A stretch of DNA of 46,602 nucleotides from a virus (lineage: Duplodnaviria > Heunggongvirae > Uroviricota > Caudoviricetes), in the IMG/VR virus record IMGVR_UViG_2724679140_000012; one strand, 5' to 3'. Both the position numbers and the translations under genes were made by a program. Below are positions 4,299-42,022 of the stretch, in pieces (within the stretch, counting starts at the first letter, position 1; every line of letters starts with the position of its first letter). The notes below the pieces were generated by a model. The model was not told where the DNA came from. It ran no database searches and saw only the letters and a program-made list of their open reading frames with translations.

Positions 4299-4490
4299 CT
4301 ATTTCACCTTAATCTCAACATTTCGCAGCTTTAGCTCTACTGGCAGGTCTGACTTTCCTGTTAATGCTAATGCGAGATTTTCAGGAGTAATGAGAGCAGT
4401 TATTGTTTTCCCCATCTCCAGACGAATAATCATTCGTATCTCGCGATCGTCACATGCTCCTGGTCGAACAATTGATATTTGTCCGTTCAT
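4299..4490 (-). CDS. Hypothetical protein, 63 aa
   Basis: ATG at 4490-4488 preceded by AGGAGA within the repeated linker (see findings). Confidence 0.6.
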   Translation of the reverse strand: MNGQISIVRPGACDDREIRMIIRLEMGKTITALITPENLALALTGKSDLPVELKLRNVEIKVK

Positions 4491-4491
4491 C

Positions 4492-4989
4492 TCACTCTCC
4501 TTTGATGCGAATGCCAGTGGTACTCATTCTCCTGATTTCCCAGAGCACACGAGGAACACCACCGTTTCCGACCGGATCGCGTTTACTCCGCAGGGCGACG
4601 CTTGATTCCGCCCAGCTTTTTCTTGGAGGAAGCTCTTTCACACGAACAAAACCAGCTGCGCGGAGAGATGCTCCTGATTCATCTGCCTGGGTGTACGTAA
4701 TACAACGTTGATAACCCATAGCCTTTGCTGCCCGCCAGACAGCACCATAAAGCGCGCTGTTAGCGTTGCGTTCTCCTGTGGTACATGTGCGATTTACTTC
4801 AAGCGTTAATCCATCGTCCAAATGTCGTGCAACAGGTCTACCGGCTGTCGCCACACCTATCAATTCTCCGGCATCATTTCTCAGACCAATGCTGAATTTA
4901 TGCCCCACCGGGGGTTTATTGTGTCGGTGATGTCTGGATATAAACGCCTTCGCAACACGAAGAGTAACCGGTGAAATCTGCACTCTCAC
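4492..4989 (-). CDS. Hypothetical protein, 165 aa (GTG start)
   Basis: ORF starts GTG at 4989-4987 with AGGAGA 4-5 nt upstream; C-terminus GIRIKGE identical to the upstream gene's C-terminus. Confidence 0.65.
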   Translation of the reverse strand: MRVQISPVTLRVAKAFISRHHRHNKPPVGHKFSIGLRNDAGELIGVATAGRPVARHLDDGLTLEVNRTCTTGERNANSALYGAVWRAAKAMGYQRCITYTQADESGASLRAAGFVRVKELPPRKSWAESSVALRSKRDPVGNGGVPRVLWEIRRMSTTGIRIKGE

Positions 4990-14921: not shown

Positions 14922-17376
14922 TTTTTATGCGCCGCCCCATAGCATCGAGGCAGAGCAGGCGGTGATTGGTGGATTGCTTCTGGATGATGACAGCAGTGAG
15001 CGCGTCCAGAAAGTTCTGGCGATGCTGAAGCCTGATTCATTTTACAGCCGACCACACAAAATCCTTTTCGAAGAAATAACCTGAATGCACCGGGAGCAAA
15101 AGCCAGTAGATGGCCTGACGCTTTTCGATGAACTGGAGCGTAAATCGTTAACGGCGTCTGTTGGCGGTTTTGCTTATATCGCTGAGATCGCAAAGAACAC
15201 GCCAAGCGCAGCAAACATCGTTGCTTATGCAATGCAGGTTCGCGAAACCGCAATGGAACGCTACGCCATCAACCGCATGACTGAAGCGACGGAATTGCTC
15301 TATTCCCGCAACGGAATGACTGCAACGCAGAAGTACGAAGCTATTCAGGCGATTTTCACGCAACTGACAGACCATGCAAAAACCGGATCGCGTCGCGGCC
15401 TTCGCTCATTTGGTGAGGTCATGGAAGACTGGGTTAGCGACCTTGAGAAGCGATTTGACCCGTCAGGCGAACAACGAGGAATGAGCACAGGGATCCCATC
15501 GCTGGACAGGATGCTGTCACCGAAAGGTCTGGTGAAAGGCTCTCTGTTCGTCATTGGCGCTCGCCCTAAGATGGGGAAAGCGCAACCGCTTAATTCACGC
15601 ATTTTGCTTGCTGATGGTTCATGGACAACATTTCGTGACGTATGTGTTGGAGATTCCCTAGCATCAGTGGATGGACAACCATCATTCGTGTCTGGAGTTT
15701 TTCCTCAAGGGGAGCGAGATATTTACCGAGTTACGTTCTCTGACGGAAGAACCGTTGATTGCGCGGATGATCATTTGTGGGAAATTCATAGTAACCGTAT
15801 TACCGGTGGCGTTGATGTTGTAGACACCTGCCGCCTACGGGACATGATGGAATGCGTTCGCTATCAAAGCCGCATTCATGTTCCTGGTATTAGCGGTGAC
15901 TTCGGATTGCCTGTTGATTTAGGGATTAGCCCATGGCTGTTAGGTGCGTTACTTGGCGATGGAAATCTTGCAGGTACGCCACGAATCAGCATGACGGAAC
16001 CATACATCATTGAGCGAGTAAGATCTGAAGTGGGTGACGATATTGAAGTCAGGCATGTTTCTGGCTGCGATTACTCCCTATCTCACAAGTTTAGCCGCAA
16101 ATTATCTCTTACGCGGGTTATGCAACGGCTTGGTATCTACGGCCGGATGTCAGAGATTAAAATTATCCCGGATATTATTTTTTCTGCTGATAAGCAAACT
16201 CGTATTGATGTTCTATGCGGATTACTTGAAACCGATGGTTGGGTTGAAGGAAATAATGCCCTGCGCTTTAGCTCGGCAAGCAAGTTCCTGTCAGATGGTG
16301 TAAAGCGGCTGGTGCATTCTCTTGGTGGCGTGTGTCGTATGACAACCAAACAGGAGCCGAAATTCAGTTATAAGGGAGAAATGCGCAAAGGTATGGATGC
16401 CCATATTTGCGCAATCAGGTTGCCTGATGAGGTTCTATCACACATAAAATCTCCACGCCTGAAGCAAAAATTCACTGCAAAACGCATCAAAACAAGTGCG
16501 CCTGTTATCACGTCGGTTGAGTATATTGGACGTGAAGAGTGCATTTGCATCATGGTATCCCACGAGAGACATTTGTATGCAACTGACGGATACATTCTAA
16601 CCCACAACACCACGCTATACAGCCAGATGGCAATCAATTGCGCAGTGCATGAGAAAAAGCCCGCTCTGATGTTCAGCCTTGAAATGCCAGGTGATCAGAT
16701 ACTGGAAAAACTGGTAGGGCAGAAGTCTGGTGTTAACCCGAATATTTTTTACCTTCCGGCGACAAATGACGCCGATGACGGCTATCAGGGTGATTACGAT
16801 GGTGACTTCAACAGGGCGATCGAAACAGCCAATCGCTTGAGTGAAATCGACATGCTTTACATCGACGACACGCCGGGATTATCTCTGGCTCAAATCGTCA
16901 GCGAAAGCCGTCGAATCAAGCGAGAAAAAGGATGTGTTGGCATGATTCTGGTCGATTACCTGACACTAATGACCGCTGAGAAGGCCGATCGCAACGACCT
17001 TGCTTACGGCATGATCACCAAAGGACTGAAGAACCTTGCCAAAGAGCTTGATTGCGTTGTTGTGCTTCTGACACAGCTTAACCGCGCACTGGAAAGCCGA
17101 ACCAATAAACGCCCATTACCAAGTGACTCACGAGATACAGGGCAGATTGAACAGGATTGCGATTATTGGGTCGGGATCCATCGTGAAGGCGCTTTTGATG
17201 ACAGTGTTCCACCTGGGGAAACTGAACTAATCCTTCGTCTCAATCGTCATGGCAATACCGGCACGGTGTATTGCATTCAGGCAAATGGCTCTATTTATGA
17301 CACAGACCAACAGTCCGCTGAAATGCGCCGCCGTGAACGCGAGGAACCGCAATCCAAGAAGAAAGGAGGATTCTGA
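14911..17376 (+). CDS. DnaB-family replicative helicase (P22 gene-12-like) containing an intein; reading frame interrupted by in-frame TGA at 15082-15084
   Basis: N-terminal PPHSIEAEQAVIGGLLLDD and VGGFAYIAEIAKNTPSAANI align with E. coli DnaB; Walker A GARPKMGK is split from TTLYSQ by a 343-aa insertion; ORF track shows 14896..15084 and 15085..17376 in the same frame separated by TGA. Confidence 0.85.
15580..16608 (+). other. Intein (343 aa) with LAGLIDADG homing-endonuclease domain inserted in the helicase P-loop
   Basis: Insertion directly after GK of Walker A; ends THN followed by extein Thr; two LAGLIDADG-like motifs (LLGALLGDGNL, LCGLLETDGWV); first residue Ala; Trp in block B (DHLW), Cys in block F (CICIMV), Thr before HN. 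Confidence 0.8.
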
Positions 17377-24059: not shown

Positions 24060-25533
24060 GTTGCACAAAGAGCTGGCTATCCGATCAGCAAGAAAAAACC
24101 TTCTCGATTTCACTTTGTACACTAATCCGCAATACGAAACAGGTTGGTTTAACGAGCTGCTTTGTGCTGAGCTAGATCACTTTCTGGATGAAGTTAAAGC
24201 CGGAAACATGCCTAGGCTAATGGTGTTTGCCCCTCCGCGCTCAGGAAAGAGTGAGTTGTGCTCTCGCCGCTTCCCAGCGTATGTGTTAGGACAGCATCCA
24301 TCATGGAACATTATTTCGTGCTCATATTCTTCTGACCTGTCAGACCGAATGAGCCGTGACGTTAAACGCATTATCACCTCTGACAAGTACGCTGATGTTT
24401 TCCCTGACGTGAAAATACCTTCAGGACGTAGTTTGGCGGGAGGCATCAACAAAACCGAGCTATGGGAACCAGTGGATGCCAAAGGCGAACTACACGGCGG
24501 CTCATATCGTTCTGCTGGTGTTAACGGTGGTATCACCGGTCAGGGTATGAACATTGGGGTTATTGATGACCCCGCGAAAGATTACAAAACCGCATCGTCT
24601 CCAATTTACCAGGAAGCGGTGATGGACTGGTATGACACGACATTCTTCACTCGTGTTGACCCGAAGATAAACGGCATCGTCATCATCCTGACACGCTGGC
24701 ATCAAAACGATCTCGCCGGACAGTTATTAAAACTGGCAGAAGAAGGCGGGGAACGCTGGCGCGTAGTTAGCTTCCCTATGGAAGCTGAAAAGGAAGAGAT
24801 TCATGAGCTCAACGGTAAAGTATATCGACTGCGCAATCCCGGTGAAATTCTGTTCCCTGAGCGCATGCCGAGAGAGTTCGTAGAGAAATGCAAACAACGC
24901 GGTTCCCTTGTATGGAATGCTCTTTATCAGCAAAGACCAACCGCCAAAGGCGGGCGGCTTATTAAGTCTGAATGGTTTGGTGAATATTCGGTACTCCCTC
25001 CCATGCAATGGCGTGCCGTCTATGGAGACACCGCACAGAAAACAAAAGAGGTCAACGACTTCTCAGTATTCGAGCACTGGGGGCTTGGTACTGACGGGTA
25101 CATCTATCTGATCGATATGATTCGCGGTAAATGGGAGGCCGATGAATTACAACGCCGTGCTGTTGCATTCTGGGAAAAGTGCAAAACTCTGAAGAATGGG
25201 CCGCTTCGCCACATGGCGATAGAGGACAAGTCATCTGGCACAGGCCTGATACAGAACATCCGTAAAAAAGCGATATGCCCCATCAAAGCAATTCAGCGCG
25301 ATAAGGATAAGTACACGCGACTGATGGACGTACAGGGTTATATCGAGTCCGGTTACATCAAGTTGCCCAGCAGCGCACCATTCATCAACGACTTCCTCGT
25401 TGAGATGGAAGCCATTAATCCTGATTTCAATACGCACGACGACCAGCTTGATCCGATGATGGATGCCATCGATGAGATGAAAAATGGCAATGGTCCGTTA
25501 CGTATATCTGAAGACCTTTTGAGGCTCGCATAG
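24007..25533 (+). CDS. Terminase large subunit, ~508 aa (start 24007 or 24013)
   Basis: Walker A PPRSGKSE, ATPase and nuclease-domain acidic motifs; position after the small subunit. Confidence 0.9.
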
Positions 25534-27068
25534 TGTTTAATTTTTTGAGAAAGAAAAAATCTGAGCCTCAGAAAGAAGAGGCGAAACAGCCAATGTCTCT
25601 GGCGAATGTTCTTGCGATTATTAACGAACAGGAGCGAATTAAAAATGAAGGCGAGGCATTGCGTAGAATTGAGAGATACGTACCCCCGCCAGGCGTTATT
25701 CCTGAACATATTGAGGAGTCAGCTCTGGCGATGGACTCCACGCCGTACAGTTACCTTAACTCAGCAAACATCACCGCATATGGCTACGGTGGATTTCCTG
25801 GCTACCCATATCTGTCTCAACTTGCTCAGTTGCCGGAGTATCGCAAGATTACTGGCACGATAGCAGAAGAGATGACGCGAAAATGGATTGAGCTGAAACA
25901 TGTAGGTAAAGACGATGGTGACGACAAGGCCGATAAGATTCGCCAGCTTGACGACGCATTAAAGCGTTTCAGAGTGCGAGAGAAGTTTCGCGAGGCGGCG
26001 GAACATGACGGTTACTTCGGGCGCGGACAGATTTATATCGACGTGAAGACGCCAAGCGGTAACTCAGCCTGGCTGGTTCCCGACGAACTGGATAAGAAGC
26101 TCTATATCAGCCCGCGCAAGATTACCAAAGGAAGCCTGAATGGTTTCCGCGTTATCGAGGCCATGTGGACATACCCTGGTGTGTATAACGCTGATAACCC
26201 TCTCAGTCCTGATTTCTTCAATCCATCTGAATGGTATGTCATGGGGCGCACGGTTCACGCCAGCCGTATGTTGACAATGATTTCTCGACAGGTGCCAGAC
26301 ATTCTCAAAGCTGCGTACAACTTCGGCGGCTTGTCGCTGAGTCAGATGGCAGAGCCATACGTGCAGAACTGGTTGAGAACGCGTGACAGCGTTAGCGATC
26401 TGGTTCATTCGTTTGTGGTCTATGGGCTGAAGACGAACATGCAGAGTGCCTTGTCTGGAATTGCAGACCCAAACCTGTTTATGCGTGCCGAGCTCTTTAA
26501 TAAGGTTCGCGACAATCGCGGAATGTTCCTTATTGATAAGGATGGAGAAGAATTCTTCCAGTTTGTGACAAGTCTGTCCGGAGTTGATGCTCTTCAGGCG
26601 CAAGCGCAGGAACAAATGGCATCGGTATCAAGCATTCCTCTGGTTAAGCTCCTTGGCATCACTCCTAACGGGCTAAACGCTTCATCTGATGGCGAAATCC
26701 GCGTCTTCTATGACTCAATACACGCCATGCAGGAGAATCTGTTCAGGGTGCCGCTGAAAACAGTGCTGGATGTTATCCAGTTGAATGAATTTGGCGAGAT
26801 TGACCCTGACATTGATTTTGAATTCCTGCCGCTGTACGAGCTTACAGAAGCAGAGAAAGCCGAGATCATGAAACATCAGTCTGAGGCTGATAAGAACTAT
26901 GCCGAAGCTGGCGTGTTCGACCTTGATGCAATAAGAAGCATGCGCCAGTCGGATAAGGCCAGCCCATACCACATGATGGAATCTGAATATGACGAAGAAG
27001 AGTACGAAAACGAGTCCATCGAAGAAGGATTCGAAGACACGGAAAACCCTTCGTCCAGTCAGAGCTAA
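25533..27068 (+). CDS. Portal protein, 511 aa
   Basis: Large ORF directly after terminase with acidic C-terminus; synteny. Confidence 0.8.
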
Positions 27069-32402: not shown

Positions 32403-32914
32403 ATGATTTCACTGTCGATAATATTATCGATGTACTTGCTGGCTACATAGAACCTATCGCTGGTAAATGCCTGCAGGCTCAGGCTAACCGTGTACCAATG
32501 CCCAAAGATCAGTTCTGCATCCTGACCCCTTTGCGATTCACCAGACTATCCACGACGAGAGAGCTTAAACAAGATACCGGCTCTCCGGACACAAGCGCCA
32601 TGGGATATACGGAAGTTCGCCAGGCTGATATTCAGGTAGATATCTATGGTCAGGGTGCAGGGGATAGAGCTATTGCACTGGAAACAACATTCACCAGTGG
32701 ATATGGCTACGACATCATCAAGGCTATTGATGCACGGCTTGCGCCGCTTTACTCATCTCCTGCCATTCAGGCGCCGATGATCAACGCCGAGAGTCAGTGG
32801 CAGGAGCGTTACACGTTAACTCTTTCCCTGCAAGCACACATCACCGTGTCGTTCCAGCAGGACTATTTCGACAAAGCAGAAATTTCAACTGAACAGGTGG
32901 ATAACCGCCCATGA
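32399..32914 (+). CDS. Putative tail completion/terminator protein, ~171 aa
   Basis: Start at internal ATG 32399 (MNDFTVDNIID); position immediately before the sheath gene. Confidence 0.55.
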   Translation: MNDFTVDNIIDVLAGYIEPIAGKCLQAQANRVPMPKDQFCILTPLRFTRLSTTRELKQDTGSPDTSAMGYTEVRQADIQVDIYGQGAGDRAIALETTFTSGYGYDIIKAIDARLAPLYSSPAIQAPMINAESQWQERYTLTLSLQAHITVSFQQDYFDKAEISTEQVDNRP

Positions 32915-34401
32915 GCACAATTCCTTTATCTGTAGATTTTAATATCACGCCCAATGTCGTTACGCCTGCCGGTTCTGCGGTTGATGCTAACGGCCTGATG
33001 TTGACCGATAACGAGCTTATCCCGGTTGGCGCGGTACAATCTTATTACTCCTCATCTGATGTATCAGCTTTGATGGGGAGTGAATCGAAAGAATTCCTCG
33101 CAGCACAACAGTATTTTAACGGATACGAAAACTCATCTGTTATTCCTGGTGAACTGCTGATGTATCGTATTGTTACTTCACCAGTGGCTGGGTATCTTCT
33201 GTCCGGCAACCTGAAAGGTGTTACCCTGGCAACACTGAAAGCTATTCCAGCAGGAACAATCACCCTTTCCATTGACGGTGAGTCGACTACCAGCACATCA
33301 ATTGATTTGTCCACAGCCACAAGTTTTAGTGATATTGCGTCCAAGTTGCAGGTTGGAATTGGTGCAAGCAAGGTGGTGGTTGAATGGTTGCCAATCGCTA
33401 ACCGATTCATCATTCGCTCTGCCACTACTGGCGCAGAGAGTGAAGTGTCTTATGCCTCTGCTGGCGCTCTGGCTACCGGCTTGTTACTGACGCAGGATTC
33501 CGCAGCGATTGTATCACCGGGTTCTGATGCGGTAACTCTGACAGACACGATGAACAACATCATCAACGTCAACCAGAACTGGATCCTGTTTAACTCGCTG
33601 GTCGAACTGACCGATGACCAGAAAACAGAATTGTGCGCATGGGCAAGCAGCAGTAAAAACCGATTTGGATATGTTGTTCACGACACCACTTCAGCAGGAA
33701 CGGTAGCCAATAATGCCAATTGCTTTGTGCAGAAAGTGGTTGTGGCAAATGGCTACGAGAACATTTTTCCGGTGTACGGAACATACCTGTATAGCGTTAC
33801 AGCACTGGCATATGCCGCATCGGTCGACTTCGCTCGCACTAATGGACGCATCTCGTTCAAGTTCCGTGGATTCCCAGGGCTGACGCCTAACGTGAGCGAC
33901 CTGGCTACGGCTCAGGCTCTGAAATCAAACGGTTACAACTTCTACGGCTCATACAGCCTGAACAAAACAATGGCGCAGTACGCATCTGATGGTGCCATTA
34001 CTGGCAAGTTTGTATGGCTGGACAGTTTTATTAATCAGGTATGGATTAATGCCAATCTGGTTAGTGCTTTTGCCAACCTGTTCACCAATAACCAGTCTTA
34101 CCCGTTCAATGAGACAGGATACGGCGCAGTGTCTGCCGCTGTTATTGATGTTGCTGAACAGGCTCTCAATTTCGGGGCTATTCAGCGTGGCGTGAAACTT
34201 GATAATGCGCAAACCAGAATTGTGAATAACACAGTTGGAAAAGATATCTCATCGACGCTGTATTCACAGGGCTGGTTCCTGTACATCCCGACACAGTCAG
34301 GCTCTGCACGCATTGAGCGCGACCTGAAAGGTGTCATTTTTTATTATGTCGATGGGCAACTTATTCAGTCCATCACAATGTCCTCAACCGCGATTTTATA
34401 A
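32911..34401 (+). CDS. Putative contractile tail sheath protein, 496 aa
   Basis: Large ORF directly upstream of a ~140-aa tube-size gene, a chaperone pair and the tape measure gene. Confidence 0.75.
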   Translation: MSTIPLSVDFNITPNVVTPAGSAVDANGLMLTDNELIPVGAVQSYYSSSDVSALMGSESKEFLAAQQYFNGYENSSVIPGELLMYRIVTSPVAGYLLSGNLKGVTLATLKAIPAGTITLSIDGESTTSTSIDLSTATSFSDIASKLQVGIGASKVVVEWLPIANRFIIRSATTGAESEVSYASAGALATGLLLTQDSAAIVSPGSDAVTLTDTMNNIINVNQNWILFNSLVELTDDQKTELCAWASSSKNRFGYVVHDTTSAGTVANNANCFVQKVVVANGYENIFPVYGTYLYSVTALAYAASVDFARTNGRISFKFRGFPGLTPNVSDLATAQALKSNGYNFYGSYSLNKTMAQYASDGAITGKFVWLDSFINQVWINANLVSAFANLFTNNQSYPFNETGYGAVSAAVIDVAEQALNFGAIQRGVKLDNAQTRIVNNTVGKDISSTLYSQGWFLYIPTQSGSARIERDLKGVIFYYVDGQLIQSITMSSTAIL

Positions 34402-34412
34402 GGGAATAAATC

Positions 34413-34847
34413 ATGCCTATCGATATTACCTCGGCAAACAGTAAGCTGCGAATCGTCGTACCCGCTTACTACCCTGGCGGTTTTGATGTTGACGACTACG
34501 CAGCTGATAACATGTTTGAAACTGGTGCGTTACAGAACAAAGAAGACATGATGTCAGCGGACGGTAAATACCATGCTGGTTTTATCTTTAACCCGACAGA
34601 GTTCACCATCAACCTGATGCCCACATCCAATGCTGGCTCGCTGATTGATGACTGGTATGCAGCGGAGAGAACCGCAATTTCAGCGTTTCAGTGTAATGCG
34701 GTGCTTACAGTTCCGGCTCTCGGCGCGAAGTGGAATTTTGTGAACGGGGTTCTTTATACATGGACTCCAACCCCTCCGGGTCGGCGCGTACTGCAACCAC
34801 GCCCGGCAGTATTTCACTTTGAGTCTGTAACACGGAGCACTATCTGA
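34413..34847 (+). CDS. Putative tail tube protein, 144 aa
   Basis: Synteny between sheath and chaperone/tape-measure genes. Confidence 0.7.
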   Translation: MPIDITSANSKLRIVVPAYYPGGFDVDDYAADNMFETGALQNKEDMMSADGKYHAGFIFNPTEFTINLMPTSNAGSLIDDWYAAERTAISAFQCNAVLTVPALGAKWNFVNGVLYTWTPTPPGRRVLQPRPAVFHFESVTRSTI

Positions 34848-35254: not shown

Positions 35255-35469
35255 AGTACCCGTTCATGGAAGAGGAGACTCTTCCGGCAAAACTCGTTAG
35301 CCCCGTAAACGTCACACCATCAATGAACGCCATTATCTGTTCAGGAAAAGCCACTTATACCGATTTGCAGGAACGGTTATCTGTTCGTGATATGTATAAC
35401 CTTCTGGAAATTATCTCGGTGGAATCATTTAACAAGCGGGTCTGGAATAAACATCAGGAGCAGCGATGA
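35251..35469 (+). CDS. Frameshift extension of the tail assembly chaperone (GT-like), -1 frame
   Basis: ORF in the -1 frame relative to the chaperone, overlapping its stop and ending at the tape measure start. Confidence 0.6.
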   Translation: MKYPFMEEETLPAKLVSPVNVTPSMNAIICSGKATYTDLQERLSVRDMYNLLEIISVESFNKRVWNKHQEQR

Positions 35470-37283
35470 TTATCAATGAGTTGGCCTACAAGGTCACAAT
35501 TAAGGCCGATGAATTCCTGAATGGAAAACGGAAAGTAAAAGATGAAGTTAGTAAATTAAACAAAGATCTTTCCAGGGCTGAGAAGGAAAGGCTAAAGGAA
35601 CTTGAAAAACAGCGGCAGGAAACGGAGAGGTTCGGTAAAACCGCTGTTTCAGCTTTCCGCAACGTGACAACAGCAGCCGCTGGATTTTTGGGAATTGGCG
35701 CCGGGTTGTATGGAATCAAGCAACTTTTTACATCTACTGCCAACGAAATCGTGAGAGCCAGTCAACAGGCCAAGTTTTTCGGTTCTGATGTTAATAAGAT
35801 GTTTGGTGTTCAGCGGGGATTTCGCCAGGCTGGTCTTAACGGTGACTCGTTCATTTCATCTTCTGGGAATGCCAGAATGGCTTTGGCAAATATTGCCGAT
35901 CCAACTGTTATGGGAGGGCTTACTGGCGCTGCCCAAAATTTGCTGGTTCTTGGCGCTCGTACCGGATTAGATATCAATAAGCTCGGCGACCCAAACAAGG
36001 CTCTTGCTGAGTTTTCTCGCTATGGCAAGACTCATTCTCAAGAAAACCTGATGCAGGTGATGGCTGCCGCAGGGTTCGATCCGACAGATGCCGCTAAAAT
36101 AAAATCAGGGGAACTTAAGCAGCTTGTCGATTCAGAAACAAAGAAATCCCGTATTACAGCACAGCAGGTAAAAGAGCAGGAGAAGGTTGCTGCCACTCTT
36201 GGGCAACTTGATTCAGAGTTTTCCCGATTAAAGCAAAATTTAGCCATGGCATTCGCTCCAGACGTTATTGACGGGATGAAGGCTTTTGGTTCCTGGATTG
36301 AGAAACATCATGGCGACATCATTGGCTTTTTCAATGACGCCGGGAATATGACGAAGCAATTCACAAAGGCAGTTGGTGGTGCGGAAGAGGCTCTGAAGCT
36401 ATTGGCAGCAGCATATGTAGGAAGCAAACTTACAGGCGGTGCCCTTCCTCCATGGTTGGCTGGGTTAATAGCATATGGTTTGTACCTCTACAATGACAGG
36501 GAAAACATTGAGGGTGCAGCTAAAGGATCGTTTGATTACTCTAAGCGTGAACTTGGAGATACCATGCGCAGCATGGGGTTTGAAACCGATTTTGGGCGTA
36601 GGGGAGATGAGATTTATGGCAATAACATTCAGCCAGATATCCCTCTCCCTGACGGAGTAAAGCCTGTAAGCATGGATTCTCTTCTTGATGCCATTCGTGA
36701 GGTGGAATCGAGTGGTGGTAAAAAACTTTACAGCCCGAAAGGTGCTGTTGGTCCGTATCAGTTCATGAAGGATACTGCCATAGCGTACGGGTTAAAGGTC
36801 GGTGATGGGATTGATGAGCGTCTTGATGAGGTAAAATCTCGCGCTGCTTCTGAAAGGTTCATGAGGGATTTGCTAAAGCACTATAAAGGCAATGTTAACC
36901 ATGCGCTGATGGCTTATAACTGGGGAATGGGCAATGTAGACAAAAAGTTAAAATATATATCCAGTGCCGGGTTTGATTCACCATCATCCAAATACTGGAA
37001 CACCCTGCCGAAAGAAACGCGAGAATATGTACCAAAGATTCGCGCCGCTCTTAATGCAAAAGAAAACGAGACGCTGGCTTACTATCAGCAGCAGCAACGC
37101 ATCGCTTCAACACCAAGCCAGACAACATCAAAAATTGACAACAGCCGTAGCAGCAGTACAACTATTGGCACGGTAGTTGTTAACAGTAACCCGACAACAG
37201 TTGATGCTCTTACCAGAAGTGTCAATCAGCAAGTTAGCCGGGTGTCAACAAACGCGGCATTTTCTAGTGGCGTAACACCTTAA
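35466..37283 (+). CDS. Tail tape measure protein with C-terminal lytic transglycosylase (SLT) domain, 605 aa
   Basis: Coiled-coil N-terminal half; SLT motifs EVESSGG, GPYQF, AYNWG in the C-terminal half; position after the chaperone pair. Confidence 0.85.
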   Translation: MIINELAYKVTIKADEFLNGKRKVKDEVSKLNKDLSRAEKERLKELEKQRQETERFGKTAVSAFRNVTTAAAGFLGIGAGLYGIKQLFTSTANEIVRASQQAKFFGSDVNKMFGVQRGFRQAGLNGDSFISSSGNARMALANIADPTVMGGLTGAAQNLLVLGARTGLDINKLGDPNKALAEFSRYGKTHSQENLMQVMAAAGFDPTDAAKIKSGELKQLVDSETKKSRITAQQVKEQEKVAATLGQLDSEFSRLKQNLAMAFAPDVIDGMKAFGSWIEKHHGDIIGFFNDAGNMTKQFTKAVGGAEEALKLLAAAYVGSKLTGGALPPWLAGLIAYGLYLYNDRENIEGAAKGSFDYSKRELGDTMRSMGFETDFGRRGDEIYGNNIQPDIPLPDGVKPVSMDSLLDAIREVESSGGKKLYSPKGAVGPYQFMKDTAIAYGLKVGDGIDERLDEVKSRAASERFMRDLLKHYKGNVNHALMAYNWGMGNVDKKLKYISSAGFDSPSSKYWNTLPKETREYVPKIRAALNAKENETLAYYQQQQRIASTPSQTTSKIDNSRSSSTTIGTVVVNSNPTTVDALTRSVNQQVSRVSTNAAFSSGVTP

Positions 37284-37303: not shown

Positions 37304-37705
37304 TTATTTTTTATTATCAAGACCGCCATTATGGTATATGTAATACCCTACCTGAATGGCGGAAAGAACTAGCCCGGTTCTGTTCTCGGTATTTTTTTTG
37401 CTTTCTCCTTGAAGATTTTTCTTTTGTTTTTTGGCGCTTGATAAAACCTCTCTTTCAATGTCCTCATACTGCATGCCATCGTAAGCGTTTTGGTATGCAC
37501 CTTGGCATACGCGGGATATTGTCTGTATGAGGTCCATCCTTTTGGACTCCTGCAATGGAACGTCCTTTTCATAGGAGCTAACCAAGGACGATGAAGCTCT
37601 GTTGCAATCCACTAAAACTTGATGTGAAGTAAGGCCGCCAGACGAGAAGCACACGGAAGGGCTTAGCAGAAAGAGGATTGAGATGGTAGATTTTAAGATG
37701 TTCAT
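37304..37705 (-). CDS. Hypothetical exported/membrane protein, 133 aa (moron gene C)
   Basis: N-terminal signal-like MNILKSTISILFLLSPSVC; AT-rich; opposite strand to flanking tail genes; weak RBS. Confidence 0.6.
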   Translation of the reverse strand: MNILKSTISILFLLSPSVCFSSGGLTSHQVLVDCNRASSSLVSSYEKDVPLQESKRMDLIQTISRVCQGAYQNAYDGMQYEDIEREVLSSAKKQKKNLQGESKKNTENRTGLVLSAIQVGYYIYHNGGLDNKK

Positions 37706-37769
37706 TTTAGAGATCCGTATTGGTTATTTCAATTACCCATTAAATGAAGAAAAAACACGCAACACCCAC

Positions 37770-38120
37770 TCAGGTGGGCTTGTCATCATTATTGACAACG
37801 ATATGATCTTGACATTCGCTCAGTAAGGCGCCTATTTCACGATGATTAAACCCTTCAGCGATGAATCTTTTCCCGTCGTTAGTTTGTATCTCTAGCTTTT
37901 CCCCCTTGTTTCTGGCGACGAAATATCCAATTGCAGCAGATAAACAATTCATTGCCGCAGGGCTTGTTATTCCGTTAACAATTACTTGCACCCACTCTGG
38001 TGGAGACGAGCTGTCGAATGCGAGTGTTACATGTGGCTTATGTTCTAGCCCCCATGTTTGCATTGCTTCGTTCAATGATTCAACATCTTCTTGTCGGACG
38101 GTAAAAATGAAACTTTCCAT
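37770..38120 (-). CDS. Hypothetical protein, 116 aa (moron gene B)
   Basis: ATG at 38120-38118 with GGAG 8 nt upstream; hairpin CCCAC-CUGA-GUGGG overlapping the stop then a U-run. Confidence 0.6.
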   Translation of the reverse strand: MESFIFTVRQEDVESLNEAMQTWGLEHKPHVTLAFDSSSPPEWVQVIVNGITSPAAMNCLSAAIGYFVARNKGEKLEIQTNDGKRFIAEGFNHREIGALLSECQDHIVVNNDDKPT

Positions 38121-38346
38121 CGTTTACACTCCATCGTTAAAAAATATTGGTAATGCCTTTAGCCTAATCTGGGGTGGGATATCATTGCTTCTCGGGAGAG
38201 AGGTCTCTATCGAGAGTGATATTACCCCAACAGAATTCACCAAAATGGTGGTCGATGATCTTCGCCGGCAAGCAAAGAGCGGAGAGTTGAAAATGACTCA
38301 AGAAGAGTTGCGCACTTCGCTGCTTGCTGCTCTTGATGGAAATTAA
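38107..38346 (+). CDS. Possible small protein, 79 aa, in the gap between moron genes A and B
   Basis: Open frame filling the 235-nt gap; weak RBS; 5' end overlaps the start of gene B on the other strand. Confidence 0.3.
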   Translation: MKLSIVYTPSLKNIGNAFSLIWGGISLLLGREVSIESDITPTEFTKMVVDDLRRQAKSGELKMTQEELRTSLLAALDGN

Positions 38347-38355
38347 TTGCTACTA

Positions 38356-38823
38356 TCAAGAGTTTTTTAATCCTGGAATTATGGGTCTAGATAAACATCC
38401 ACACCCTACAAGTTGTCCTGGGTGGATGTACTTGAAAAAACCGATCCTGATTCCTTTACGAATAGAGTACTTTTTGCCATTGAGATTGCGGTGACTGGGA
38501 TGTTTACATAGGAAATCCTCAAACACCCACGCTGCCTCAGTGATCTTAATCTTTAATCGGCGTGCCGCCTCAACCTCAGGATTAGTGATAGACCAAAGGA
38601 TCATAGCAAGACGGCCAGATATCTTTTCGCTAAGTCCGGTTTCTTGAATGATGTTATTCTTTGAGTTGTACAGGTTTCGACCATGCTTTACGACATCTTG
38701 GTATAGCCCTTTATGGTTCTTAACATCGATAATTAATTTCTTGATTATCAACAACTCATCTGCTGATGCTTTTTTAAATTCTACATTGATGATTTCATTT
38801 TCTTCCTTGCTAAGACATGCCAT
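38356..38823 (-). CDS. Hypothetical protein, 155 aa (moron gene A), immediately downstream of mnt
   Basis: ATG at 38823-38821 with GAGG 6 nt upstream, 23 nt after the mnt-like stop; AT-rich, Lys/Ile/Asn-rich. Confidence 0.65.
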   Translation of the reverse strand: MACLSKEENEIINVEFKKASADELLIIKKLIIDVKNHKGLYQDVVKHGRNLYNSKNNIIQETGLSEKISGRLAMILWSITNPEVEAARRLKIKITEAAWVFEDFLCKHPSHRNLNGKKYSIRKGIRIGFFKYIHPGQLVGCGCLSRPIIPGLKNS

Positions 38824-38846
38824 AGCAACCTCGTAATATCGTCTTC

Positions 38847-39089
38847 TTACTTGATGTTTGCTTCCTTAATGGCTGCAACCTCTCTCTCAAGAGCTATTAA
38901 TCTTTCGGTTAAGGAAGAAAGGCTAAGCGAGTGAACATGTTTATTTTCTCCTGCCCATGCACTTAGAGCTGCAACCATTTCTGCATTTAAAGATCTGCCA
39001 TTCGCCTCAGCTAACGCGGTTAGGCGATCCTTTATCTCCACAGGAAGTCGAAGATTAACTTGTGGGTTCTTGTACCTGCGTTCAGACAT
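38847..39089 (-). CDS. mnt: Mnt-like ribbon-helix-helix repressor, ~80 aa
   Basis: N-terminal NLRLPVEIKDRLTALAEANGRSLNAEMVAAL parallels the P22 Mnt RHH motif (EANGRSMNSELLQIV); divergent from arc/ant. Confidence 0.8.
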   Translation of the reverse strand: MSERRYKNPQVNLRLPVEIKDRLTALAEANGRSLNAEMVAALSAWAGENKHVHSLSLSSLTERLIALEREVAAIKEANIK

Positions 39090-39095
39090 CAGCAT

Positions 39096-39194
39096 ATCCT
39101 GAATAATTTTTTACCACAGGATATGTAGGTATCTATTGACTATCAATGCGTACCTACATACTATGTATGCGTACCGCATACCAAAGGAGCGAAA
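39096..39194. promoter_or_regulatory. immI-type divergent control region: Pant candidate (-35 TTGACT 39136-39141, -10 TACTAT 39159-39164) and operator-like palindromes
   Basis: Inverted repeats TGTAGGTA/TACCTACA (39124-39131 and 39151-39158) flanking the -35, and GTATGCG-TAC-CGCATAC (39164-39180) over the start region. Confidence 0.6.
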
Positions 39195-39341
39195 ATGAAA
39201 GTAAAAACGTTAAGGATGCCAGAATGGCTCGAAAAAGCTTTGGAGCAGTCAGCGAAAAAGGATGATCGGTCATTCAGCAATGAGGTGTTGAGGAGGCTTA
39301 AGGAGTCGGTAGCTAAGGACGGGATTGTTTGTCCAGAATGA
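39195..39341 (+). CDS. arc: Arc-like ribbon-helix-helix repressor, 48 aa
   Basis: ATG at 39195 with AAGGAG upstream; RHH-sized protein with SFSNEVLRRLKESV; position upstream of ant as in P22. Confidence 0.75.
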   Translation: MKVKTLRMPEWLEKALEQSAKKDDRSFSNEVLRRLKESVAKDGIVCPE

Positions 39342-39407
39342 GTAAAGCCCCAGATATTGCGAGTATCTAGGGCTTAAATCGCCAGTAAGTATTGAGGAAA
39401 AACTGAC

Positions 39408-40337
39408 ATGAAAAGTATAGCAACAGCGGTATCTACTATCAACGTACCATTCCACGGCGCAGAGCTTTATGTTGTCAATCACAACGGCGAACCGTACACC
39501 CCAATGAAACCTATCGTTGAGGGAATGGGTATGACTTGGCAGTCTCAACACCGCAAGTTGATGGAGAGATTTAAGACCTGCATCATCGAAATGATGATTC
39601 AGCTCCCCGGTGATACTCAGCGTCGTCTGGTTATCTGTCTTGCTTTACGTAAACTTGCAGGCTGGCTGCAAACCATCAGCCCTAACAAAGTCCGTCCTGA
39701 AATCCGCGACAAGGTAATCCAGTATCAGGAAGAGTGTGACGATGTGCTCTATGAGTACTGGACTAAAGGCCATGTGGTTAATCCACGCAAAGCTAAAAAG
39801 GCGTTGCCGGGCAAAATCACCACTGAACAGCAGGAAGCCATTAAACAACTTGTCATGAGTCGTGGTCAGTCTCTGCCAAAAGAAAAACAGGCGAAGGCGA
39901 TGATCACCATGTGGTCGTCACTGAAATCCCATTTTGGATGTTCGTACAAAGAAATCAGTGAGGAGCAGTTTACCGAAGCACTGTCACTTGCAGCTCGAGT
40001 TCCACTTGAAGGTGAGTTCATTAGCAAGCAAGAGAAGAAAGCAAACGAGCTTTCTGCAAAAGAAGCAAACAGCCTTGTATGGTTATGGGATTATGCCAAC
40101 CGCTCACAGGCATTATTCCGCGAACTGTATCCGGCATTAAAACAAATTCAATCGAACTATTCCGGCAGATGCTACGACTACGGTCATGAGTTCTCGTATG
40201 TTATCGGAACGGCGAGAGACGTTTTAATCAACCACACACGAGATGTTGATATCAATGAGCCAGACGGACCAACAAATCTTTCTGCATGGATAAGGCTTAA
40301 GAATAAAGAATTGCCGCCTTCTGTTCATCTGTATTAA
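39408..40337 (+). CDS. ant: Antirepressor (Ant-like), 309 aa
   Basis: Position downstream of arc and divergent from mnt; N-terminal domain resembles phage antirepressor N-domains from memory. Confidence 0.75.
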
Positions 40338-40344
40338 TGACGCA

Positions 40345-40384
40345 TCTGGCGGTGAAAAAAACCGCCAGTGTGCTGCTGGCGGCC
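40345..40384. terminator. Hairpin cluster after ant (alternative stems among CTGGCGG / CCGCCAG / CTGGCGG)
   Basis: Three mutually complementary 7-mers; A-run on plus strand means the T-run follows the hairpin only on the minus strand. Confidence 0.4.
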
Positions 40385-40420
40385 TATGTCACACCCTTAC
40401 TACCACATAAGGAATGCTTA

Positions 40421-41146
40421 ATGACTTTTAAGAATGTAGCAAACATCGGATCCGTTGTCACGGATAAAACCATTGACAGCCAGCGCCTTCTTGAGATGGT
40501 AAATCAGGCTCGTAGACAGTGCGGTGAGCCATCAGTACGTAACAACAAATTCATCGAGAAAATTGAGGATGAATTGGAGGGCGAGACCTACACAAAAAGT
40601 GTAGGTCGGAAAAACGGGGCTGACATTGATGTTATCTCCATGACTATCAAGCAGGCGCTTCGTGTTGCTGCTCGCGAATCTAAAGCAGTTCGCCGAACAC
40701 TTGTAGACAAACTTGAAAGTATGCAGGAAGCGCACATTAAAAGCGGTAAATCGTCGAGTGGACTTGTTGAGTATCGCCAGGCGCGAACATTGAAAATGAC
40801 GGTTGAAGCTGTTACCAATCTGTTCGATTTGATGCCAAATCTTGCGCCGGAAGCAAAGCAGACTGCGGCCGCAAGCATAATCAACCCGATCGTTGGTTTT
40901 AATGCAATACCCCTTCCGGCAATAGAAGAGCATTACTACTCAGCAGGGGAGGTTGCAGAGCAGCTTGGAGTAACGGCAAACAAGATTGGTCGCATTGCTA
41001 ACGCAAACAACCTCAAAACTGAGCAGTACGGGAAGTTCTTCCTGGATAAATCTGCGCATTCCAGCAAACAGGTGGAAGCATTCCGCTACAACTCAAAAGG
41101 AGTTGAAGTATTGAGAAATCTAGTTAATGTTTCTACCGCAGCCTAA
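40421..41146 (+). CDS. Second antirepressor-like / DNA-binding regulatory protein, 241 aa
   Basis: ATG at 40421 with AAGGA upstream (track ORF begins earlier at 40337); followed by a strong terminator; function inferred from position only. Confidence 0.6.
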   Translation: MTFKNVANIGSVVTDKTIDSQRLLEMVNQARRQCGEPSVRNNKFIEKIEDELEGETYTKSVGRKNGADIDVISMTIKQALRVAARESKAVRRTLVDKLESMQEAHIKSGKSSSGLVEYRQARTLKMTVEAVTNLFDLMPNLAPEAKQTAAASIINPIVGFNAIPLPAIEEHYYSAGEVAEQLGVTANKIGRIANANNLKTEQYGKFFLDKSAHSSKQVEAFRYNSKGVEVLRNLVNVSTAA

Positions 41147-41206: not shown

Positions 41207-42022
41207 ATGGGCATAATCGATTTAAACACAGCAGACATATTCAATGCTATCGGTGGTGGCTCTCCGCTTTCGATCATCGACAGCGTTCTGCATCCCCAGT
41301 ATGTGATTCGTGACAGGGAAACTGGCGAGGTTGCTCTTGAGTTCAGTGGTATGGCATCCGTACAGCCAAGTGGAAGGGCGCAAATAACAAACGCTCCGGT
41401 GGAGAAAGGGAAATACCAGTCCATCAACAAAGTTAAAGAACCTGCCAGGGTAAGGTGCGCAATCATCGTAAATGGTCTTACTGGTTTTTCCGGCAACATC
41501 CCGAATATTTTCGATCTAACATTCACAAGCCAAAACAGCACGCTGAACACAATCAAAACGATGCTGTCCTCTGCAAAAACATACGACATTGAAACGCCAA
41601 AGGAAACTCTGGAGAGTTTCGACCTTGTTGACCACTATTACGAAGTTAACTCTCAAAAAGGGGTGACTCTTCTGACGGTTTATCTTGATTTTCAGGAGGT
41701 CATTCAACAAATGGAGGTTATCCTCTCTGGATCTCAGTCAGAACAGAAGCCAACGGATAACAATAAGTCACAGGGAGATGTAGGAGTTGATCCACAAATA
41801 ACCAATGGCGGAGCCAGGGAATCTACTGTCGATGAGCTAAGTAAATCATGGTCATCACTGAAGTCATCTGTTGGCGGAATCACTGGAAAAATCTCCGGTA
41901 CAATCAAGACTGAATTTCATAGTGCTCTTGATACAGTGTCCAAACCAATACTCGAAGTTACAAACAGCGCAACAAAAAAAGCGGCAGATATTGCAAAAAA
42001 TATAGTTAAGGCGAGTACATGA
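41207..42022 (+). CDS. Putative tail/baseplate protein, 271 aa
   Basis: ATG with GGAGAG upstream; resumes the tail module after the insertion. Confidence 0.6.
   Translation: MGIIDLNTADIFNAIGGGSPLSIIDSVLHPQYVIRDRETGEVALEFSGMASVQPSGRAQITNAPVEKGKYQSINKVKEPARVRCAIIVNGLTGFSGNIPNIFDLTFTSQNSTLNTIKTMLSSAKTYDIETPKETLESFDLVDHYYEVNSQKGVTLLTVYLDFQEVIQQMEVILSGSQSEQKPTDNNKSQGDVGVDPQITNGGARESTVDELSKSWSSLKSSVGGITGKISGTIKTEFHSALDTVSKPILEVTNSATKKAADIAKNIVKAST

Follow-up and report, generated by a model that had tools for sequence, protein, structure and literature searches.

We analysed the 46,602-nucleotide (nt) virus record IMGVR_UViG_2724679140_000012 (Caudoviricetes), referred to below in its full length as the window, and in particular the segment at positions 37304–39089, where three open reading frames (ORFs) follow the maintenance repressor gene mnt of a predicted P22-type immunity-I (immI) module. 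The ORFs, of 155 (38356..38823), 116 (37770..38120) and 133 (37304..37705) amino acids (aa), all lie on the minus strand, which is also the strand of mnt, downstream of that gene and antisense to the tape-measure and baseplate genes on both flanks, in agreement with a first-pass annotation of the same DNA. All three are, judging by conservation, real genes subject to purifying selection: full-length homologues were detected in prophages of Enterobacterales (18 for the 155-aa gene, 8 for the 116-aa gene and 11 for the 133-aa gene), and the ratio of the proportions of nonsynonymous and synonymous differences (pN/pS, Nei-Gojobori) against homologues is 0.18–0.53. The first-pass annotation had further described the segment as a strongly AT-rich three-gene operon, and neither part of this description was borne out. 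The AT-richness is mild: the segment has a GC content of 41.8% and the window one of 46.3%. This puts the segment about 1.8 standard deviations below average and at the 8th percentile among sliding windows of equal length; the baseplate genes, with 42.9%, come close. Nor is the region one operon; it is a mosaic of three independently mobile accessory cassettes on the mnt side of the immI module.

The operon model fails because an opposite-strand gene of 79 aa lies between the 155- and 116-aa genes, because a hairpin followed by a run of six U residues separates the 116- and 133-aa genes, and because the members are found separately in other genomes. The hairpin, obtained by RNA folding (37750..37786, minus strand), has 12 base pairs with a bulge and a loop that contains the 116-aa stop codon; with G and U6 after it, it is a candidate for a terminator or an attenuator. 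Salmonella (L018; related loci are designated here by L numbers) has a comparable GCCCAC-CTGA-GTGGGC hairpin, and Yersinia (L012/13) has none; the strict consensus scan for terminators did not call the hairpin between the 116- and 133-aa genes. As for distribution, the three genes occur together only in four near-identical E. coli prophages. In L003 and other E. coli prophages, the 133-aa gene, with about 65 nt of upstream sequence, lies by the tape-measure gene without the 116- and 155-aa genes, and the remainder of the L003 slot is occupied by a Panacea-domain gene, its partner gene and a LexA-family gene. The 79/116 pair stands alone, antisense, at a different site of the tail cluster in L015-17, where there is no immI module, and in Yersinia L012 homologues of the pair accompany the 133-aa gene, again without immI; overall, tail clusters that lack immI carry the 116-aa gene in L012-17. 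In E. coli TW10590, mnt and the 155-aa gene are kept, and a P63C gene and an ant fragment stand in place of the 79-, 116- and 133-aa genes. L028 has the 155-aa gene by itself, and in L021 a KilA-N gene is all that accompanies it. Of 5426 complete E. coli genomes, 5 contain the 155-aa gene and 4 the 79/116 pair.

Upstream of the cassettes, mnt, arc, a sar-like RNA and ant make up what sequence comparison identifies as a complete P22-type immI module, which here sits between the tape-measure and baseplate-hub genes. The mnt gene (38847..39095, minus strand; Pfam Arc, 2.1e-10) encodes the predicted ribbon-helix-helix (RHH) maintenance repressor of Pant; it is 79.9% identical at the nucleotide level to mnt of CUS-3, and its product is 80–82 aa long, the start called by the Prokaryotic Genome Annotation Pipeline (PGAP) being 39089. 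Divergent from it is arc (39195..39341, plus strand; Pfam Arc, 1.6e-5), followed by ant, for a P22-type antirepressor (39408..40337, plus strand; P22_AR_N, 1.3e-45, and P22_AR_C, 1.6e-29). Between arc and ant, on the minus strand (39341..39407), there is a full-length match (model positions 1–68) to the sar antisense RNA model RF00262 of Rfam, which at 28.7 bits (E 0.005) stays below the gathering score of 43 and has the position and strand that P22 leads one to expect. A consensus scan yielded a candidate Pmnt (39146..39118, minus strand) and a candidate Pant (39136..39164, plus strand), each with 9 of 12 matching positions; the two are divergent, overlap (39118..39164) and have inverted repeats in the sequence. 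A second antirepressor-like gene (40337..41146, plus strand; phrog_1726 'anti-repressor', 6.6e-99) has its start overlapping the ant stop, such that two antirepressor genes stand in tandem.

The interval of 235 nt between the 155- and 116-aa genes had been thought to hold either a small convergent ORF or an untranslated RNA. The former is correct: the 79-aa ORF (38107..38346, plus strand), which PGAP annotates in the identical E. coli prophage, is divergent from the 116-aa gene and convergent with the 155-aa gene, the stop codons of the 79- and 155-aa genes being only 9 nt apart. Its pattern of substitution identifies it as a real, conserved protein-coding gene. It is found with the 116-aa gene in Salmonella (79 aa), in Yersinia (58 aa) and in L015, a distant metagenomic relative (75 aa), with pN/pS of 0.14 against Salmonella and 0.33 against Yersinia, and it is the sole stop-free frame over the interval, all five alternative frames holding stops. 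In the four unrelated frames, the ratios lie between about 0.9 and 2.5; for the opposite-strand mirror-image frame, low values (0.22–0.41) are expected, since it shares third-codon positions with the 79-aa frame. Given the lack of an Rfam match and the clear coding signature on the plus strand, the untranslated RNA was rejected. The 79-aa product has no match in Pfam, PHROGs, PADLOC or NCBIfam; a loose 'GR..S.E' likeness to RHH regulators, noticed by eye, was dropped for want of Pfam support.

The 116-aa product is predicted to be cytoplasmic. It matches phrog_12509, a family of unknown function, as do all nine members of the 116-aa family, which share an invariant HVTLAFDS…SPAAMxC…GYFxxRNKG core; the pN/pS of the gene is 0.20–0.53. 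Searches of Pfam, NCBIfam and PADLOC gave no match, and the AlphaFold model has low confidence (a predicted local distance difference test score of 47), so no fold search was made from it. The start codons of the 79- and 116-aa genes overlap within a 14-nt near-palindrome, ATGAAACTTTCCAT (38107..38120). Because of this overlap, the ribosome-binding site and, necessarily, the promoter of each gene lie inside the other gene, and the 5' ends of the two mRNAs must be complementary. From this arrangement we predict mutually interfering transcription, with the pair as a self-contained regulator-effector or toggle unit. No base of the near-palindrome differs among E. coli, Salmonella and Yersinia.

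The 155-aa gene starts 23 nt downstream of mnt, and the junction contains a GAGG Shine-Dalgarno motif. This tight spacing, together with the overlapping stop and start at the equivalent junction in L008/L026, renders co-transcription of the gene with mnt plausible. The first-pass annotation had found no known family for any of the three products; for the 155-aa product, this no longer stands. Profile and pairwise comparisons identify it as a divergent, stand-alone MuF/SPP1 gp7-type domain (PF04233-like), a homologous outlier of that family. The product matches phrog_324 'head morphogenesis' (1.6e-8), and in tblastn searches its residues 38–154 align with annotated head-morphogenesis proteins of Burkholderia, Aeromonas, Klebsiella and Pseudomonas phages, with E values down to 2e-8. 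It is 24% identical over aa 45–152 (BLASTP pairwise E 1e-11) to the canonical MuF head-morphogenesis protein of the same phage (26989..27807, plus strand; PF04233, 1.2e-15, aa 153–261), the gene for which directly follows the portal gene (25533..27068; PF06381). In a Pfam scan, none of 12 members of the 155-aa family reached PF04233 directly. The profile of the family, searched against 1.84 billion representative proteins, gave 226 matches at E <= 1e-3, and four long ones that were scanned (266–309 aa) pass the PF04233 gathering score (library-wide E 2e-9 to 5e-8), with the domain aligned to profile positions ~15–153. The profile homology to the MuF/SPP1 gp7/Mu gpF family (PF04233, TIGR01641) extends over the whole PF04233 domain. 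Moreover, W99, H111, G116, G124, P135, C141 and C143 are invariant in the 155-aa family, in other short relatives and in canonical MuF proteins, and the resulting W…H…G…G…P…CxC motif is common to the 155-aa protein and the phage's own MuF. C106 is kept within the family and in most short relatives, and the C/H/C/C pattern of C106, H111, C141 and C143 is compatible with a zinc site.

Compared to the MuF family, the 155-aa protein falls below the Pfam threshold, lacks the ~150-aa N-terminal half of the resident MuF and has the extra conserved Cys106. Its gene brings the number of copies in the genome to two, runs antisense to the late genes and adjoins mnt. The gene lies outside the packaging module, 11 kb from the portal gene and adjacent to neither portal nor terminase, and its homologues are all located in antirepressor or tail-cluster slots. 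Products with clear virion-structural homologues had been taken in advance to speak against a prophage accessory role. Formally the MuF domain is such a homologue, but the context indicates that this is not the structural MuF of the phage. The MuF domain is found in about a third of tailed phages, and its function is formally still unknown; 85% of muf genes are near a portal or terminase gene, and phages rarely carry two of them (614 genes in 611 genomes; Jamet et al., PMC5576092). Considering how rarely muf is doubled and how commonly it lies near portal or terminase genes, a second, shortened copy in an immunity region is unusual, and nothing comparable was found in the literature searched. 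The MuF polymorphic toxins (Jamet et al. 2017, PMC5576092) share with the present case a temperate-phage MuF in a conflict-related setting; the 155-aa protein differs from them in having neither a C-terminal toxin domain nor a downstream immunity gene and in not being portal-adjacent. Metagenomes hold additional short MuF-like proteins of 150–190 aa (P0044-P0059), matched by the profile of the 155-aa family with E values of 1e-12 to 1e-8, and those of them that were scanned miss the PF04233 threshold. A contig scan of species-representative genomes revealed no relatives of the 155-aa family. In E. coli TW10590, an intact 155-aa gene (L002 5589..6056) had been left unannotated.

Eight distinct contexts of the 155-aa family, on three phage backbones, were compared, and in seven of them an antirepressor-type gene adjoins the 155-aa gene. 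A Mnt-type gene is located directly upstream, either with the 23 nt spacer (the window and L009-11/L025) or with overlapping stop and start codons (ATGA; L008/L026), whereas in L023 the upstream gene encodes an Arc-domain protein and is separated by ~200 nt with a hairpin in between. In L020, L021 and L005-7, there is no RHH gene, and the 155-aa gene is directly divergent from a pRha, KilA-N or BstA_C-domain gene; in L028, it stands alone between baseplate genes. The 155-aa gene is therefore strongly but not obligately linked with antirepressor modules, and because the antirepressor families differ as well, both a specific protein partner and a toxin-antitoxin pairing have these observations against them. 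For the Mnt-less loci, control by LexA was rejected, since no LexA box (CTG-N10-CAG) was found in the intergenic regions examined. Comparison of the window with a 75%-identical E. coli allele (L009 4729..5468 against 38356..39095) shows that mnt and the first ~45 and last ~25 codons of the 155-aa gene are at least 97% identical, compared to just 40–80% in the central ~260 nt (codons ~45–130). The core of the gene is recombinant or diversified, as is often the case in the specificity-determining parts of conflict genes.

The 133-aa gene (37304..37705, minus strand) is convergent with the tape-measure gene (35466..37283, plus strand), which encodes a C-terminal SLT domain and the stop of which is 20 nt away. 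The signal-like N-terminus noted in the first-pass annotation is confirmed by the family alignment, in which the n, h and c regions are all kept: an n-region containing K/R and a stretch of 12–14 hydrophobic residues precede …VCFS|(A/E/S)GG. The product is accordingly predicted to be secreted through a Sec signal and to be periplasmic. Yersinia lacks the cysteine that precedes the cleavage site, so a conserved lipobox is missing, and the sequence beyond the signal region contains no other hydrophobic stretch. Among the 11 full-length homologues, C34 and C67 of the mature part belong to the invariant class, and pN/pS against Yersinia is 0.45 for codons 1–56 and 0.30 for the rest. PGAP calls the protein as 77 aa, starting at Met57 (L001 6105..6338 and L003 5105..5338, equivalent to 37304..37537 of the window); this call drops the signal peptide and the conserved N-terminal region under selection. 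A TTGAAA-17-TAAAAT site was rejected as the promoter of the gene, because it overlaps the ATG and cannot serve the full-length ORF. Searches of Pfam, PHROG, NCBIfam and the PDB gave no match for this product.

In relatives, the site that abuts the tape-measure stop holds varied small exported proteins, namely, secreted proteins of 154–159 aa with a common C-x32-C spacing (L013 4416..4886, L014 4416..4895 and L020 4541..5005), a secreted protein of 153 aa (L028 4482..4943) and, in Klebsiella, a small membrane protein with two transmembrane segments (L021 ~4480..4735). The C-x32-C spacing is also that of the 133-aa family. We rejected the possibility that the 133-aa protein inhibits the tape-measure SLT domain as its matched target, because its allele does not co-vary with the tape-measure C-terminus. 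Prophages encode several superinfection-exclusion proteins located in the cell envelope, among them SieA of P22, Imm and Sp of T4, gp15 of HK97, Llp of T5 and Cor of phi80. Like these, the 133-aa protein is small, prophage-encoded and envelope-exported, its gene occupies a moron slot near genes for the injection machinery, and other secreted or membrane proteins substitute for it in relatives. It differs from them in showing no similarity in sequence or family, in lacking a lipobox and in having no transmembrane segment beyond the signal peptide.

The slot beside the antirepressor module is a hot spot of accessory genes. In sister prophages, its genes are those for Panacea/SocA and a partner, for a YafO toxin (next to a further gene), for P63C, for a BstA_C-domain protein and for an O-antigen acyltransferase, and a LexA-family gene stands in for mnt (cargo at L003 5931..7620, L009/L011 5857..6724, L010 5858..6907, L023 2860..3860, L008 2528..4432 and L005 3286..4209). 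Cargo of this kind fits accessory genes that would be expressed in the lysogen. The proposal that the three genes are prophage defence or conversion genes thus gains support from their location in an immunity-region hot spot, but not from known defence families: PADLOC-DB v2 gave only a chance-level SspC match of 11.9 bits for the 133-aa protein and nothing for the 116-, 155- and 79-aa proteins. In sequence searches against solved structures, none of the three families had a match with E under 0.07, and tblastn of the 116- and 133-aa proteins against 50,697 phage records gave no match.

These observations support, by analogy, the view of the region as a myovirus equivalent of the 'ant moron' of P22, in which accessory genes such as the lysogen-expressed sieA adjoin mnt (Villafane et al. 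2008, PMC2629481). The P22 region (mnt, arc, sar and ant, with sieA, hkcC and orf59a; PMC2629481) and the one described here share gene order and orientation, variable genes of unknown function on the mnt side that are co-oriented with mnt, antisense insertion into the late structural operon and a content that varies widely among relatives. They differ in the type of phage, which here is a contractile-tailed myovirus of the E217/Pam3/XM1-like group as opposed to a P22-like podovirus, and in the site of insertion, between the tape-measure and baseplate-hub genes rather than ahead of the tailspike gene. Furthermore, a second antirepressor gene follows ant, and the MuF domain, the 79/116 pair and the 133-aa secreted protein are unrelated to sieA, hkcC and 59a. 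The ant moron itself is known; what is new is a myovirus version in which a stand-alone MuF domain is linked to mnt.

Taken together, the results translate into a model in which a P22-type immI module carries on its mnt side a mosaic of mobile accessory cassettes that act in phage competition, a model that we regard as probably correct, if by no means secure. Under this model, the cassettes would be accessory genes expressed from the prophage against competing phages, as is sieA in the P22 ant moron. The 155-aa protein would be made together with Mnt in the lysogen, the 133-aa protein would act in the periplasm against an incoming phage, and the 79/116 pair would constitute a self-regulated two-gene unit. 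The 155-aa protein might bind the portal of a phage, which is the sole biochemically established activity of a MuF protein (SPP1 gp7 with gp6): gp7 attaches to the gp6 portal, a few copies of it go into the capsid, and full infectivity depends on it (PMC6316719, PMC10083569). As a free domain devoid of the N-terminal half, it could then compete with the MuF of a superinfecting phage and render the progeny less infective. By analogy with gp7, such portal binding and competition are the mechanism that we prefer for the 155-aa protein, albeit with a low probability. The specific form of the idea, which we put forward as quite unlikely, is that the protein is the founding member of a class of lysogen-expressed 'portal decoys', co-regulated with Mnt and occupying the MuF site on the portals of superinfecting phages that depend on MuF, or else blocking the loading of their MuF-fused effectors. 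The progeny of these phages would then be poorly infectious, and the recombining segment (residues ~45–130) would set the target specificity. The exclusion-type role of the 133-aa protein in the periplasm is a generic guess held with low confidence.

Several observations weigh against this model. Portal binding is extrapolated from SPP1 gp7, the 155-aa family is just 24–34% identical to any phage MuF, which leaves no evident target phage, and a portal binder made in the lysogen might harm the phage's own assembly after induction. The lack of co-variation between the secreted-protein allele and the tape-measure C-terminal domain also counts on this side, as does the absence of any match to a defence, toxin or exclusion family in Pfam, NCBIfam or PADLOC. 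A consensus scan revealed no convincing conserved promoter site for the 116-, 79- or 133-aa genes. Finally, mnt transcription was undetectable in a lysogen of the P22-like E. coli phage Kapi1 (PMC12922286), and co-orientation with mnt is therefore no guarantee of lysogenic expression.

The 155-aa protein might instead serve the phage that encodes it, as a second internal capsid protein that is loaded through the portal and enters the cell along with the DNA, where it would promote infection or establishment. Such a function has been proposed likewise for gp7 and for MuF-fused effectors, MuF proteins being packaged in the head and delivered (PMC6316719, PMC5512222), and purifying selection on the 155-aa family would be in accord with it. 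Yet the gene runs antisense to the late operon and is remote from the portal gene, whereas 85% of muf genes lie near a portal or terminase gene (PMC5576092); it adjoins lysogeny regulators or would be co-transcribed with them, no effector domain is present, and the phage already has a canonical MuF. We consider this explanation unlikely. The 155-aa protein could also regulate the antirepressor switch, by binding DNA or RNA or as an anti-antirepressor, with use of the nucleic-acid binding reported for SPP1 gp7 and of a Zn-type C/H/C/C site. The antirepressor-type neighbour in seven of the eight contexts fits such a regulator, and so do L020 and L021, where the 155-aa gene takes the position of mnt, divergent from an antirepressor-type gene and without an RHH gene; besides, gp7 has been described as a DNA-binding protein (PMC10083569). 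The antirepressors next to it are, however, unrelated to one another (P22_AR, Bro-N, pRha, KilA-N and BstA_C), the L028 gene has none beside it between its baseplate genes, and terminator-like hairpins just upstream of the gene in L021 and L023 imply independent expression. A regulatory role of this kind accordingly appears quite improbable.

The order of the genes, with the RHH gene first and a short or overlapping junction (ATGA in L008/L026), resembles that of a type II toxin-antitoxin pair, in which Mnt would be the antitoxin and the 155-aa protein the toxin, and neighbouring slots do hold genes of toxin-antitoxin type. An obligate pairing is contradicted by L005-7, L020, L021 and L028, in all of which the 155-aa gene lacks an RHH partner; Mnt, moreover, is a bona fide immI repressor accompanied by arc, sar and ant, and the 155-aa protein shows no similarity to toxin families. 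This pairing is, in our estimate, extremely improbable. Hardly more credible, although not to quite the same degree, is a single operon, driven by Pmnt and expressed in the lysogen, of mnt and the 155-, 116- and 133-aa genes as a multi-component defence or conversion system. The four genes are co-oriented, mnt and the 155-aa gene are tightly spaced, the consensus scan found no strong terminator between the 155- and 116-aa genes, and in Yersinia the 116- and 133-aa genes stay together and no hairpin intervenes. Against these features stand the selected 79-aa gene, which fills the interval between the 155- and 116-aa genes and to which any read-through would be antisense, the hairpin and U6 after the 116-aa gene, and the confinement of the three-gene combination to the four near-identical E. 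coli prophages.

The region shows that the P22-type immI module and its accessory hot spot are not limited to P22-like podoviruses, and that, in the tail cluster of contractile-tailed prophages, immI gathers toxin-antitoxin-type and other accessory cargo. A small stand-alone MuF outside the late operon would also be a tractable tool for the study of MuF function, and interference with the portal, if true, would be a new type of prophage-encoded interference with assembly. For annotation, the analysis yields corrections to the shortened 133-aa gene and to the 155-aa gene missed in one genome, and it supports the 79-aa gene as real.

The phage that carries these cassettes is, by its gene content, an E217/Pam3/XM1-like temperate myovirus of E. 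coli. The related loci bear the Pfam labels E217_gp31_N, E217_Gp32 and Pam3_gp18, and these labels and the XM1_gp53/cement match place the prophage in this contractile-tailed group, and an identical, annotated copy of the region is present in E. coli IGC_RcoliRes_1.1. Upstream of the tape-measure gene lie the sheath (32911..34401) and tube (34413..34847) genes, and beyond the second antirepressor-like gene lies the gene for a Dit-like baseplate hub (41207..42022), all on the plus strand. Elsewhere in the window, the DnaB-like replicative helicase (15085..17376, plus strand, 763 aa) has a LAGLIDADG_3 match at aa 376–422, between the N- and C-terminal domains of DnaB, which suggests the insertion of an intein or a homing endonuclease.

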